This document shows, one piece after another, positions 165 to 45,171 of a DNA stretch of 64,000 nucleotides. The notes under the pieces are model-generated. The model worked only from the letters and a program-made list of their open reading frames with translations. It had not been told where the DNA came from and searched no databases. Numbering within the stretch: the stretch's first letter is position 1; every line of letters begins with the position of its first letter. This stretch comes from Octopus vulgaris (taxonomy: Eukaryota): assembly GCA_951406725.2 (NCBI GenBank), contig OX597823.1, positions 11,036,001 to 11,100,000 on the forward strand, in the 5' to 3' direction. The translations under genes and the position numbers were made by a program.

Positions 165-252
165 ATAATGTAATGATTGCATTGTTCAATTAAATGGAGT
201 TGCTTGAAACGATCGTAATGCATTACCTCTGGATATCCTTGTTGCTTATTAT
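165..252 (+). ncRNA. Degenerate hammerhead-like motif in a short repeat remnant (same family as 23693-23815)
   Basis: GAAACGATCGTA (palindromic stem III + GUA) at ~206-217, then TATCCTTGTTGCTTA..TGAT and (TA)n as at 23765-23815. The CUGAUGA box has decayed to TAATGA. Confidence 0.45.
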
Positions 253-845
253 GATATATATATATATATATATATATATATATATATATATATATATCCA
301 CGCGCGCTCACACATGCACACACACATACACTCACACACACACACACACAAACACACGCACACACACACACACACACACACATACGCACACACACACGTC
401 TGTTTATATAATGTAGCAGAGAATAGGTACGCATGTATGCATGGATGTGATTATGTTTATGTGACATTGTATCTGATTGACAGCCGATGTTGGATTGTTT
501 TACCCCATTACTTGACCCAATGTATTGAGTTCTTCTTCGCTCTGTTCGTGTTTTACCGTATACATAATCTCACAAATCCTCTATTAACAAAACCTATGTG
601 TGTGTGTGTATCCGGGCTTGTGTGTGTGGAGGGGCGTAATGCGTGCGTGTGGAGCATGAAAAAGATAGGAAAATTTGTGTATTCAAATAAAATATTTCCC
701 TGTGTGATGTTTGTTTCGTCACAGTTGCACAGACAATCCCTTTTCATTCTTTTCAATGGACCTGCCAAATTACATCGCTACAGTTCACGATATATAACAT
801 TAAACAAAAAAATTTCTAATTTTGCAACAAGAAAATCAATTTTGA

Positions 846-995
846 TGGGAGGAGGCCAGCCAATTACATTGAGCGCAGTGTTCAACTGGTGCTTATTCTA
901 TCGAACCTCAAAAAGATGAAAGGTAGAGTCGACCACAGGGGAATTTGAGTTCAGAACGTATTTTTCTTGACGATTTAACAATTCTGCCAGCTCGC
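846..995 (-). mobile_element. Old diverged copy of SINE family A (Meta-domain-like)
   Basis: GATGAAAGGTAGAGTCGACC...GGAATTTGAGTTCAGAACG matches the reverse complement of the family A core. Confidence 0.7.
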
Positions 996-1217
996 CATTC
1001 AGTGATGTTAACTAAAATAGATAATCCCACGCTTGCCGAACACCGACAGATTGCTGCTATTGCTGCTGCTGCTGCTGCTGCTGCTGCTGCTGCTGCTGCT
1101 GCTGCAGCCATTGTTGCTGTCGTTGCTCCTGCTGTTTTTGCTGTTGTTGTTGTTTCTGCTGCTGTTGTTACAGTTATTTTTAAAAGTAAGGTGTGCGATG
1201 AGTTAAGGTGTTGAATT

Positions 1218-1568
1218 TGCGTGGCACCTTGGGCAAGTGTCTTCTGCTATAGCCCCGGGCCGACCAATGCCTTGTGAGTGGATTTGGTAGACGGAAACTG
1301 AAAGAAGCCTATTGTATATATATATATATATATATATAAGTGTGTGTGTATAAGTTTGTGTGTCTGTGTTTGTCCCCTGGCACTGCTTGACAACCGATGC
1401 TGGTGTGTTTACGTCCCCGTTACTTAGCGGTTCGGCAAAAAGAGACCGATAGAATAAGTACTGGGCTTACAAAAGAATAAGTCCCGGGGTCGATTTGCTC
1501 GACTAAAGGCGGTGCTCCAGCATGGCCGCAGTCAAATGACTGAAACAAGTAAAAGAGTAAAAAGAGAG
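1218..1568 (+). mobile_element. SINE family B (CORE-like centre, internal microsatellite, CR1-like tail), 5'-truncated
   Basis: ACCTTGGGCAAGTGTC core, internal (TA)/(TG) tract and tail GGCGGTGCTCCAGCATGGCCGCAG...(TAAAAGAG)n. Colinear with 28409-28830. Confidence 0.85.
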
Positions 1569-40434: not shown

Positions 40435-42051
40435 ACCACCACTACCGCCGCCGCCGCCGCCAAAACCACAACCACCACCACCGACGTGTCGTCGTCATCA
40501 TAAAGCTGAACGTCTCTGAGAAATGTAGGTAGGAGAGATACCGTATCAATAATCACTCCAGCACTACCAACCAAACCTCCACAAACACTACTACCACTAC
40601 TACCACCACCACAACCACCGCAAATACTAGGATCTCTGCCACAAACAACCTCCGGGAATACAAACACTGCCAGCATTACGACCCCGACACCACCACCACC
40701 ACCACCACCAGAAATCCAAGAGAAATTTGGCTTAGTGGAATTAAACTACTTTTACGTACCAGGGATGGTGTGGGATTCTTCTGAAAATTCAAATCTGCTA
40801 ATACTTTTTTTTCTTTTTTCTTTCTTTTTTTTTTTTTTCGGTGAGGTTGGAGCCCTTTAAAGATAGTCACAATTCCTTCCCAGCGTTTCGGATCCTGGAC
40901 CGATGTGCAAAGCTGAACGCCTTTCTAACAGGTCTAAACCACCACCACCACCACCACCACCAACAACAACAACAACAACAACAACAACAACAACAGCTGC
41001 ATCACTAATATCATCTACACCACCATCAGCATCTTCCTTAAACAAAATGCAAATCGTCCTGCCCTGTCCTGCCTGTCATAAAGTAATTATAAAACCCCAT
41101 CCTCCACCCTGTTACCGTCGTTCACTGACTAAGAAAGAAAGAAAGAAAGAAAGAAAGAAAGAAAGAACGGAAGAAGAAAAAAAGGCGAGTGAGGGAAGGA
41201 GAGAGAGAGAGTGAGAGGAAGAGAAAGAGAAAGTGAGAGCTCTGCTGTATTGGTTCGGTGCCACACCCACACAAAACTTTTTTCAGGTACCGCCTTTTTG
41301 ACGCAATCAGGGAAATAAAGGTAAAGCTAGCGAGTATAACATATCCAAAGCATGCATGGATACCTACATAAATACATACAAACATACATATTTACATACA
41401 TATATATATATATATATATATATATATATATATATACATATTTACATACATATATATATATATATATATATATATATATATATATATATATATATATCAC
41501 TCAATCATGCACACACACACACAGAGGCAGGCACGCACGTATGTATTTAAGAAAAGCGCAACAGTTTTTCTAGTTTACTTTTAAGCCTTACCAAAGAGAA
41601 AACAGGTATTTCTTGAACGCTTAGGAGGAACACACGATAAAAGTAGAGAAGCAAAAACAATCAACAACATTAACAAACAGTAACAACTGCAACTACAACT
41701 GCAATAATAATAATAATAATAATAAAAAAAATCAATTGGTTACAGCGAAAAGAATTCAAGGAAATGTTTTCAAATTACAGATTACAATGTGATTAAAAGG
41801 AAAAAAGAAAAAAAAAAAGAAGAAATATTGAGAGCGAAGAGAAAAAAAAGATGTGGAGTATGATTAAGAAGGAAAGAAAAAAAAAGGGATTTCTTACATT
41901 TATGCTATCTTTTTTCTTTTTTTTTTATTTTGTAGAGTTTTTAATTTACTGCTTCTCTTTGGGGTAATTATTTACACAGCAAAAAAAAAACACAGGAGGA
42001 ATATAGACACACATACACACGCCTTCTCTCTTTCAGCCTCATACATACACC

Positions 42052-42408
42052 CTTTCTCTCTCTCTCTCTCTCTCTCTCTCTCTCTATCTATCTATCTATC
42101 CATCAATCTATCTATCTATCTATCTATCTATCTATCTATCTATCTATCTATCTATCTATCTATCTATCTATCTATCTATCTATCTATCTATCTATCTATC
42201 TATCTATCTATCTATCTATCTATCTATCTATCTATCTATCTATCTATCTATCTATCTATCTATCTATCTATCTATCTGTCTGTCTGTCTGTCTATCTATC
42301 TATCTATCTATCTATCTATATATATATATATATATATATATCTATCTATCTATATATCTATCTATCTATCTATCTATCTATCTATCTATCTATCTATCTA
42401 TCTATCTC
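42052..42408. repeat. (TC)n/(TCTA)n microsatellite
   Basis: Seen directly. Confidence 0.95.
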
Positions 42409-44969
42409 TTCCTTTTTTAAACATTCTCTCTCTATCTATCTCTCTCTCACACACACACACAAACGCATACTTCCTCTCAACACACATTCACGTATTCACA
42501 CGCATGCGCTAGTCACAGGCATACGCAGACACACGCACACACACACACAGACACACACACGCAGCGTATTTCAATTTATTTAGTTATATATATACATATA
42601 TTTATCAATCAATTTCCCCCCATGTATTTATTTATTTATTTATTTATCTATTTGTTGCACTTCTGTCTTTCCCTTTTTCCTTATTTTCGCTCTTGTTCGT
42701 TCAGTTTTCATTTCTCTGAAAGCCTGTTTTCCTCAACATCACTACCGCGACCGCGACCGCCACCACCACCACTATCTCTATTGCCTTCTTATTGCATTCT
42801 CCTCCCCTTTTTTCCTCCTCCTTCTACTACTACCACATATCTCTCTATCTCATTTTCTCTCTCTCTCTCTCTCTCTCTCTCTGTCTCTCTCTCTCATTGC
42901 ATTGAATAATGATAGTGATGATGATTTTCTTTGCTCACCAAAACGGCCCAGGACTTTATGGACAACATAAAAAGATGCACACCACCATGCAGTCTCATAT
43001 ATATATATATATATATATATATATATATATATATATATATATATATATATATATATACACACATACACACATACATACATACACACAGGTACAAACATGC
43101 ATATATATATATATATACACACATACACACATCCGCATACACACACATACATGTTGTATCATAGCATAATCAGCAGCTTACAACCACTACTGCGACTGTT
43201 GTCATATTCAACAACTCATCGACTCCACCTCAAAATACAAGCTTCTGGATAAGTCAACCTTTTATATAACAAGGAAAACTGGAAGGCTCTTCTAACGCGT
43301 GGATTTAAAAAGAAAAAATATTTTTCAGTTTATATTATTTAAAAGAAAAAAGAACAAACAACTTTTTATATAATTTATTCGCTTAAAATATATATTTATT
43401 TACTTCTAGGCTTATTTATTTGTTCTTTCTTAAAAAAAAAGTCACTGGCTTCGTGAGGACATATCTTATACTTTATATGAGGACATATACTATATTGTCG
43501 TCTTAATCTTCCTCATCATCATCATCATCATCAACCATATTCCTATATATAAACTGTTTTACTTATGGTGATGTTGTGATATATATATATATATATATAT
43601 ATTTTTTGTTTTGGATTTTATTTCTTCTAAGTAAACAAATTTGACAACAAATATTTACTTTCACTTTCAAAACGATACGACAGAAAGAAGAGAAAAAACT
43701 ACATACATGCGTACATACACAAATACATATATACATACGCAAATACATATATATACGTGCATGCGTTGCATGCGTACATGTATACACGCACACGTACATG
43801 CATATAAATATGGTATGAGCATCTACATATGTGCCTGTGTATGTATGTATATATGTATGTGCGTATATATAGACATATACAGACATATATAGACATATAT
43901 ACATGACACTTATTTAAACTTAAACATATATATATATGTGTGTGTGTGTGTGTGTATATATATATATATATATAAACACACACACAGACAAATACATGCA
44001 TATATATGTATATGTAAATATATGCATACATATGTAGTGTATATATATATATATATATATATATATATATATATATATATATATACATATACATATATAT
44101 ATATACATATATATATACACACACACACATATATATATATATATATATATGTCTACATTGATATACATACGTGTATATGTATATGTATGCATATATATAT
44201 ATATATATATGCACACACTCTCTTGCAAAACTTATACAGATGCACTCACACTCACACACCAATAAGCACAAACACACACACACACATATATATATATATA
44301 TATATATATACATACATGCATATTACATACACACACGCACATCACAATAACCTAGTAAATAAAACAACAAAACTTTTAAAAGAAGGGAGAAAAAATAACA
44401 TTTGTTTTCTGATTGAACAAAATTATGGGATGTATAAAAAAAAGTATGGGATGGTATTTTCCTATTTGATGGTTAAAGAAAAAATAAAAGAAACAAAAAA
44501 AAACTAAAAAAAAAAAAGAAACAACATTTAAAATATTAATTTGTTATCTAAGTTCAACTTTTTTATTGTCTCTGTCAGTCTTTTAACTTTTATATCAGTT
44601 CTTTTCAGTTTTCTGAGAATGTTTAATAATTGACAAAATAATACCTCGTGGGGCCTTGGGATGCTTTACTACTGCGTGATGAGTTATGAGTTATGGCACT
44701 TAATGTTTCATGTTCAAATTCCATAATTTCATTAACTTTGCTTCTATTTTTTCCTGATTTTAATTGGATTAAAAAAAAAAAGAAAAAGGAAGAAATAACC
44801 ACTTGTATGGCATAGAGTGTAAAACAGTCACATCCACTACCTTATCCTATATATATATATATATATATATATAGATATATATATATAGATATATATATAT
44901 GCATATATATAGATGCATATATATATATGCATATATATATATATATATATATATATATATATATATATA

Positions 44970-45171
44970 CCGGAGTAAACACATAAATGTGAAATTAGGT
45001 GGAAAAAAGAGTACTCAAATACCAATGGTAGAGTAATATGCTTTATTTAAAGGCAGCAGAAAATTCAACAAAACCTGTTACTCTGAGTTTCCCGTTGCCG
45101 TTCATCAGACAGTTTTTGCTAGAAACTCAGAGTAACAGGTTTTGTTGAATTTTCTGCTGCTTTAAATAAAG
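44970..45171 (-). mobile_element. Penelope-pLTR-like element with an inverted partial copy, inserted in (TA)n
   Basis: Inverted arms 45041-45091 and 45122-45171. Hammerhead followed by AATAAA on the minus strand. Confidence 0.7.
45069..45117 (-). ncRNA. Minimal type I hammerhead ribozyme
   Basis: AAAACUGU-CUGAUGA-A-CG-GCAA-CG-G-GAA-ACUC-A-GAGU-A-ACAGGUUUU. Core intact, GNRA-capped mini stem II, palindromic stem III and GUA triplet. A-G mismatch at the base of stem II. Confidence 0.8.

Follow-up and report, generated by a model that had tools for sequence, protein, structure and literature searches.

What are the hammerhead-ribozyme-like motifs that recur in a 64,000-nucleotide stretch of the Octopus vulgaris genome (assembly GCA_951406725.2, contig OX597823.1, positions 11,036,001 to 11,100,000; this whole stretch is called the window below, and its positions are counted from its first letter)? 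The window has a GC content of 36% and is rich in microsatellites and short interspersed nuclear elements (SINEs). A first-pass annotation made from the sequence had placed seven such motifs in it, and read them as a dense and diverse population of solo pseudo-long terminal repeats (pLTRs) or retrozymes. The seven motifs are very probably the 5′-truncated, hammerhead-bearing pLTR ends of five multicopy families of Penelope-like elements (PLEs), likely inert fossils of truncated insertions, with two of the families (B and E) tied to Hydra-clade open reading frames (ORFs) that contain reverse transcriptase (RT) and GIY-YIG endonuclease (EN) domains, and one (C) to a non-coding unit of ~577 bp. 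The class as such is known: PLE pLTRs with minimal hammerheads litter invertebrate genomes, and Hydra-clade PLEs with hammerhead ribozymes, (TA)n targeting and inverted arms have already been published, an octopus member included (PMC8557442, Craig et al. 2021). The supposed population is thus present, as truncated pLTRs that are dense and diverse genome-wide, but its novelty was overstated, and a non-coding unit was found for family C.

Scanning with a type-I descriptor (stem I of at least 3 bp, CUGANGA, stem II, GAAA, palindromic stem III, and a UH site) identified three intact hammerhead cores in the window, at 20184(−), 23699(+), and 45108(−), which belong to the motifs annotated at 20108, 23693, and 45069. 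In block-wise dinucleotide shuffles of the window without its microsatellites the mean count was 0.045 and the maximum 2, so that a count of three was reached in none of 200. A tolerance of one core mismatch returned the identical three motifs, a number reached in one of 30 shuffles. The other four, at 165, 10039, 29951, and 37857, fail the descriptor and are broken copies of real families: each, when used as a genome query or pattern, led to a multicopy family, and membership established by genome similarity is evidence independent of the descriptor. Both core boxes and the family-specific stem III are present in 21 of 29 copies of C, 18 of 29 of E, and 7 of 15 of D. The type-I order with paired stems I and II and a UH site is found in three of the seven window motifs, in most C and E copies, and in about half of the D copies. 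At 165(+) the decayed core that had been proposed does not exist, as the CUGANGA box is absent, the copy begins within loop II, and 74–168 constitutes an inverted tail arm; the motif at 29951 has a GUU triplet and a stem I reduced to 1 bp. The estimate of about five families was correct (A with two subfamilies, B, C, D, and E), as was the adjacency to microsatellites, since each of the seven motifs has its 3′ or outer ends 0–3 nt from a dinucleotide run; such a run adjoins nine of the 12 ends tested and is lacking at the A1, C, and E 5′ ends. The density of one motif per 9 kb, however, includes the broken copies and is overstated, the intact motifs occurring once per 21 kb in the window.

In all families the palindromic stem III is short (ACGAUCGU, ACUCAGAGU, ACGCGU, ACGU, ACAGCUGU). 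The G10.1–C11.1 pair is present in C and some A2 copies, replaced by U·U in A1 and E, as in published Hydra hammerheads, and by A·A or A·G in most B copies; it is unpaired in seven of ten family-A rows. Compensatory stem changes were found between the homologous A subfamilies, where three of the four stem I pairs, and five of 11 pairs overall, are altered on both sides (slid controls 0–3). The ten rows form three related groups, hence about two independent events. The genome pattern for family A caught 10 indel variants, which serve as a sample and give no copy count. Folding of the seven motifs as monomers gave mixed z-scores of −0.9 to −3.6 and mostly non-hammerhead folds.

The insertions often consist of two inverted arms, one of which carries a tail, and this architecture is clearest in family B. 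A B copy consists of two arms inserted in (TA)n in inverted orientation, whose 3′ ends are fixed at 37 nt (short arm) and, by virtue of a further 73-nt tail, at 110 nt beyond the predicted cut site. The tail arm in the window has a 2-bp stem II with a GNRA loop, stem III ACUCAGAGU, and the full 73-nt tail leading to (TA)n. The 5′ junctions, in contrast to the fixed 3′ ends, vary from copy to copy, whereas subfamily variants are common to both arms. Across 36 insertions the arms differ at 1.06 sites within an insertion versus 2.12 between insertions, which fits an origin of both arms from one source. A fixed hairpin master or miniature inverted-repeat transposable element (MITE) was considered for B and ruled out, as the junctions differ by copy. 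The B tail arm has 2,414 exact 31-mer matches genome-wide, a lower bound on the number of copies, and none for the reversed control. Many B copies carry the substitution U4C, which marks one subfamily.

No PLE ORF was recognizable in the window, as the first-pass annotation had stated, but the linked GIY-YIG and RT ORFs it proposed to look for were found outside the window for B and E. A 24-mer from the upstream part of B has 672 genome matches, including a same-strand pair 3,495 bp apart at a locus (L091) that turned out to be a full tandem of pLTR, tail, ORF, 3′ untranslated region (UTR), and pLTR with a period of 3,495 bp. The single ORF of 711 amino acids (aa) encodes an RT followed by a C-terminal GIY-YIG domain (GVVY...YTG at 580), with RWK at residue 37, DKT at 113, YRDD at 344, CxCx5C at 562, CKLC (CxxC) at 667, and CRH (CxH) at 695; as read from the sequence, it contains no CCHH motif, and Cys is missing from the interval that separates the GIY box from the YIG box. 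It has 1,014 homologs, among the best 120 of which PF26215, PF28514, and PF01541 are annotated. By its sequence, the predicted protein carries every diagnostic motif of the Hydra clade given in PMC8557442. Assembled contigs presumed to derive from RNA cover all 30 bins of L091:2105–4600, and two bridge tail and ORF without a splice joint; these contigs are uninformative on starts, ends, strand, and level. In family E the tail continues into a decayed Hydra-type RT ORF in one of 30 loci (L163/L224). This ORF shares 32–37% identity with that of B in separate blocks over residues 6–577, and the endonuclease was not recovered in this one decayed copy.

Family A combines a short-arm and tail architecture like that of B with the hammerhead style of published Hydra elements: the A2 hammerhead has their CUGAUGAU...UGAAA form, and the A2 arm in the window has the short-arm end at (TA)n, without a tail. 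Family C is a ~577-bp unit whose longest stop-free frame, in the doubled unit, is 108 codons. It occurs in partial tandems and as inverted arms; of 27 arms, seven span the whole unit or almost all of it, and periods of 576–596 bp were found in five loci. The features of all families in the window are compiled in the table.

Hammerhead-bearing features of the window by family (positions of the whole stretch; cut sites are predictions)
Position	Strand	Family	Feature	Details
74..168	−	A1	Inverted arm with ~100-nt tail	Identified by BLAST of a natural A1 copy (L104); tail seen in L099, L101, L102, L104, L049
162..255	+	A1	Sense arm starting in loop II, ends at (AT)n	Only the GAAA-ACGAUCGU-A half (206–217); no CUGANGA box
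9106..9215	+	E	Sequence upstream of hammerhead	Parted from the hammerhead by SINEs
9450..9801	+	E	Three partial duplicates of the hammerhead 5′ half	9450–9487, 9499–9539, 9761–9801; interleaved with tandem SINEs
10023..10294	+	E	pLTR end and tail, ends at (CT)n	CUGAUGA 10043–10049; GAAA changed to CAAA (10071); stem III broken
19939..20198	−	C	3′ part of unit, intact hammerhead	Core 20184–20178; stem III ACGCGU; predicted cut after 20114
20594..20751	−	C	Middle part of unit	Parted from the hammerhead by a SINE (~20200–20590)
21176..21298	−	C	5′ part of unit	Past a second SINE
23611..23821	+	A2	Solo arm, intact hammerhead	Core 23699–23705; stem III ACGAUCGU; predicted cut after 23776
29855..30030	−	D	Old diverged arm, 70–88% to relatives	Core 29984–29978; stem III ACGU; GUU triplet
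37683..37944		B	Remains of an inverted-arm insertion into (TA)n, decayed	Tail arm (−), short arm (+) with core 37861; stem III and cut site lost
44966..45124	−	B	Tail arm, from −46 of the cut site	Core 45108–45102 intact; predicted cut after 45079
45121..45178	+	B	Short inverted arm lacking a tail, −14 to +37, up to (TA)n	Pairs with the tail arm in a ~50-bp hairpin

Several results weigh against this identification. Firstly, the Rfam hammerhead covariance models matched none of the three intact motifs (threshold E ≤ 10) on short stretches, to which the scan had been restricted after a whole-window run was dominated by microsatellite-driven microRNA matches, just as the repeat search of the window was dominated by microsatellites. 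Secondly, a local Pfam search of the B ORF returned no match, and at 3.5 kb the B unit exceeds the <3 kb typical of Hydra elements, a tendency described in PMC8557442. Thirdly, B and E would belong to the Hydra clade by protein motifs and likeness rather than by a tree, the likeness of B to Hydra-1_Obim having been judged by eye from passages of the published supplement. The putative clade assignment of A and D follows from hammerhead style and architecture, and tblastn detected no linked RT and EN ORF at distances of up to 1.5 kb from the 10 A loci and 16 D loci searched.

The ends of the family-B arms were tallied with a query that began at the cut site, leaving the 5′ ends unselected (50 arms from 28 loci). 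Dropped from the 30-locus sample were the copy of the window itself (L031) and L053, a duplicate of L025; an earlier sample, L001–L030, picked by hairpin junction, was excluded, and an arm at L055 scored as −4 owing to an internal deletion has its true end at −43. Seven of the 50 arms end at most 5 nt from the cut site (0.023 per nt against a background of 0.020 per nt), another eight stop at the stem III palindrome, which makes their junction ambiguous, and 35 pass it. Because most arms extend across the cut site, the genomic copies suggest that the B templates were likely for the most part uncut RNA. Cleaved and then religated RNA, however, would equally give arms crossing the cut site, which is a point against this interpretation. 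Further upstream the ends are concentrated: of the 18 arms that reach −43, 15 have ended by −48, where 11% would be expected (binomial p 4e-12, for which it should be noted that the arms of one insertion are not fully independent), with six ending exactly at −47. Genome-wide, 15-mer counts drop from 4,831 (−44 to −30) to 2,018 (−52 to −38) over 8 nt; the upstream 15-mer is matched by 24 of 26 long B arms, and the downstream one is also present in 55 of 59 upstream matches. Arms passing −53 decay slowly, and in a copy taken without selection (L188) the two arms terminate at −44 and −46. Apparent ends at −520 in the arm alignments are alignment breaks at a low-complexity stretch, and a 15-mer at −76 to −62 (128 matches) proved to be an uninformative subfamily variant. 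A splice acceptor (AG at −41) was likewise rejected as the cause of the wall, as arms extend up to 6 nt upstream of the AG and share no common upstream exon.

In B, the extended stem I ends at position −47, which is also the A of an initiator-like match to YYANWYY. The pile-up at −43 to −48 most likely marks the RNA 5′ end, namely a transcription start in the pLTR, a reading to which we give an even chance. Penelope transcription is known to start inside its pLTR (PMC2377424), and a start within the pLTR combined with internal priming would lead to run-off of the RT at that start. On this question alone, the alternative is that the RT stalls at a pLTR hairpin (−73 to −41) that refolds after stem I has been copied, while the RNA continues; this is a real possibility, if one that we favor less. 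In the folding of −100 to −31 of five natural long arms, the predicted outer helix spans ~−45 to −41 and the inner helix ends at ~−49 (pair probability ≥0.9 in four of the five copies), with the arm ends lying between them. Family C has an end cluster at −119 to −130 (6 of 27 arms) that is also located on a hairpin, on its 3′ strand, and none of the six −47 junctions contains an extra cap-derived G. Besides these observations, a transcription start is disfavored by the absence of a comparable wall in family E, where the query disfavored short copies, and by the fact that the wall is stronger in the short-armed B subfamily, so that the subfamily mix affects the rates. Stalling, on the other hand, would have to occur at a weak hairpin (−9 to −12 kcal/mol for the whole 70-mer), and no ends lie at the outer-helix base, −40 to −42. 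Also against it are the coincidence of −47 with both the initiator-like A and the terminus of the extended stem I, and the run-off expected from internal priming at a pLTR-internal start.

A transcription start at −47 would fit an insertion mechanism modeled on PAc (Poseidon of Anolis; Frangieh et al. 2024, PMC11167929), whose protein nicks AT-rich DNA on both strands and primes at two internal sites flanking the tail of an unprocessed RNA. By analogy, the B protein would nick both strands of (TA)n DNA, and two cDNAs would be primed from a pair of internal positions shortly past the hammerhead, which would account for two arms with fixed 3′ ends. The RT would run off the transcription start in the pLTR after only ~85–160 nt, and the two short cDNAs would be joined head-to-head via microhomology. 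The thousands of B hairpins may then be copies, terminated by run-off, of the 5′ portion of uncleaved element mRNA, a tentative proposal that we hold at slightly less than even confidence. Common to PAc and B are the priming of both strands at AT-rich DNA, the two internal RT start sites flanking the tail, and the uncleaved template; in contrast, PAc belongs to another PLE clade, was studied in vitro whereas the B mechanism is deduced from genomic copies, and has an ORF starting inside the hammerhead, while that of B starts downstream of the tail. Different PLE families lie side by side in one (TA)n run at L049, L025/L053, L082, and L157, which suggests that a single target was used repeatedly.

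It is improbable that all seven motifs are instead non-LTR retrozymes, which self-cleave as tandem dimers, circularize, and reinsert from circular RNA (retrozymes and dimer cleavage are treated in PMC7229834 and PMC6765202). Family C comes closest, as it shares with non-LTR retrozymes (Cervera and de la Pena 2020, PMC7229834; Li et al. 2026) a non-coding, hammerhead-bearing unit without an ORF above 108 codons and, in places, more-than-unit copies, and a true hammerhead array of 353–359-bp units exists elsewhere in the genome (L184). However, two same-strand hammerheads in one array occur in none of the 30 C loci, the window contains no tandem hammerhead array, the 577-bp unit exceeds the published range of 150–450 bp (PMC7229834), and C has inverted arms of the PLE type; B and E, moreover, continue into RT and EN ORFs.

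The suggestion that sense-oriented copies could cleave host pre-mRNA was not supported. Co-option by the host as active ribozymes that cut pre-mRNA when in sense orientation in introns is very unlikely, even though three cores are intact and, with ~10^5 motifs per genome, rare functional cases are plausible. Four of the seven motifs are broken, no compatible same-strand dimer partner is present in the window, and the insertion at 45069 hides its cut site in a fold of ~50 bp, a hairpin against which forcing stem I would cost 35.7 kcal/mol; solo copies without a partner and inverted arms over the cut site make host cleavage unlikely. Monomers of the same hammerhead type did not cleave in vitro (PMC4209133), cleavage of PLE-type monomers needs the element protein (PMC11167929), and U4C, found in many B copies, lowers hammerhead activity in vitro (PMC3088659). 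According to its abstract, a 2026 preprint reports that retrozymes are excluded from genes, both introns and exons, which leaves room for harm by tandem copies. Finally, chance matches or MITE-like DNA-transposon hairpins can practically be dismissed: the B insertions are MITE-like in their long terminal inverted repeats and TA flanks and the hammerheads lack an Rfam match, but the shuffle control, the contiguity of B with an RT and GIY-YIG ORF, the compensatory stem I changes in A, the copy-specific hairpin junctions, and the unpaired tail on one arm refute both.

The density of motifs in the window is typical of the genome, as judged from forty unselected 10-kb segments, which start at round coordinates and come from 26 large contigs (400 kb of the 2.8-Gb, 227-contig genome). 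These contain 20 intact motifs in 13 independent events, against 0–1 in 12 shuffles. Extrapolated from the 400 kb, one intact event per ~30 kb corresponds to ~91,000 genome-wide (95% range 48,000–156,000). In ~1 Mb of genome fetched in total, ~40 motif clusters were distinguished, several of which are variants of one family. Published type-I hammerhead populations share with this one the topology, the short palindromic stem III, and the many heterogeneous families of mostly solo copies; ~90,000 intact events compare with ~2,000–9,000 per genome published, numbers that are not strictly comparable as the descriptors differ. Several families here differ from the published populations in having long stem II hairpins of 50–60 nt.

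Compared with the published Hydra-clade PLEs (Hydra-1_Obim, Hydra-2_Amil), the B protein has the same C-terminal GIY-YIG domain, RWK and DKT motifs, and CxCx5C linker, and likewise lacks CCHH; the pLTR hammerhead, (TA)n targets, inverted 5′-truncated arms, and tail also agree. Stem I, stem III, and the cut site of B match those of the coral Hydra-2_aMil hammerhead except for one base, whereas stem II differs, and the B and E hammerheads are distinct from that of the one octopus Hydra family listed in PMC8557442. Further differences are the 3.5-kb unit of B with its ~1.1-kb 3′ UTR, a stem II reduced to 2–3 bp, the U4C of one subfamily, and tails of 73 nt (B), ~100 nt (A), and ~150 nt (E) instead of 30–40 nt. 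The literature searched contained no description of the B 5′-end pile-up or of families A–E, with repeat databases and closed papers outside its coverage.

Additional observations concern the surroundings of these families. The B hairpins, such as that at 45030–45178, amount to thousands of near-perfect 50–90-bp inverted repeats, and B copies were also passively amplified in a ~3.5–4-kb tandem repeat (C30:3967290–3988660) and in duplicated segments on small contigs (C35/C36/C44/C21). In the window copy of E, tandem SINEs (9220–10063) are inserted in loop II of the hammerhead, whose flanking half is duplicated three times. The array at L184 (3082–4520 and 2307–2666; C1, ~20.002–20.005 Mb), which fits the definition of a non-LTR retrozyme, comprises five same-strand units of 353–359 bp, each with an intact type-I hammerhead with stem III ACCGGU and a GUC site, and two inverted units; Rfam contains no hammerhead family matching it at E ≤ 1. 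The flanks of L061, L200, L003, and L127 contain an abundant family with CUGUAGA in place of CUGANGA and good stems I and II (six matches with this type of stem III and flank). Its relatives are family D and a family with CUGACGA/CCGACGA. A 3′ remnant of this family, without a hammerhead and ending in a microsatellite, forms an eighth PLE-type stub in the window at 38654–38712(−). Unrelated to the hammerheads is a near-complete long interspersed nuclear element with APE and RT at 14715–17832(+), with an upstream ORF (13976–14626), a 786-aa ORF matching RVT_1 and Exo_endo_phos, and a frameshift near 17000. A fragment at 10675–11290(−) presumably resembles the C-terminus of a mariner transposase. 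Fragments of a second PLE type with a DKG motif (L097:5397–5999, L195:2516–2752), Neptune-like by eye against a published alignment, indicate that several PLE clades coexist in this genome.

A repeat annotation of the octopus from 2026 lists active Penelope families, and the terms “ribozyme” and “hammerhead” are absent from its main text (PMC13282606). Families B, C, E, and A would improve such annotations, as the B hairpins can be mistaken for MITEs or microRNA precursors; if transcribed, they could, speculatively, form double-stranded RNA on which A-to-I editing or small-RNA processing acts. In the literature, what the PLE hammerhead does is considered an open question (PMC8557442, PMC11167929). 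The contribution here lies in the scale and in the record of arm ends, in which thousands of young insertions tally in vivo where reverse transcription ended, and the lack of an excess of ends at the cut site together with the sharp upstream stop supports the in vitro result of an uncut RNA template. If true, the fossil record shows that the hammerhead does not cut the RNA that is inserted, in a genome with ~10^5 such motifs. If general, solo PLE hammerheads would be a by-product of internal priming, and their 5′ ends would map PLE promoters in any genome.

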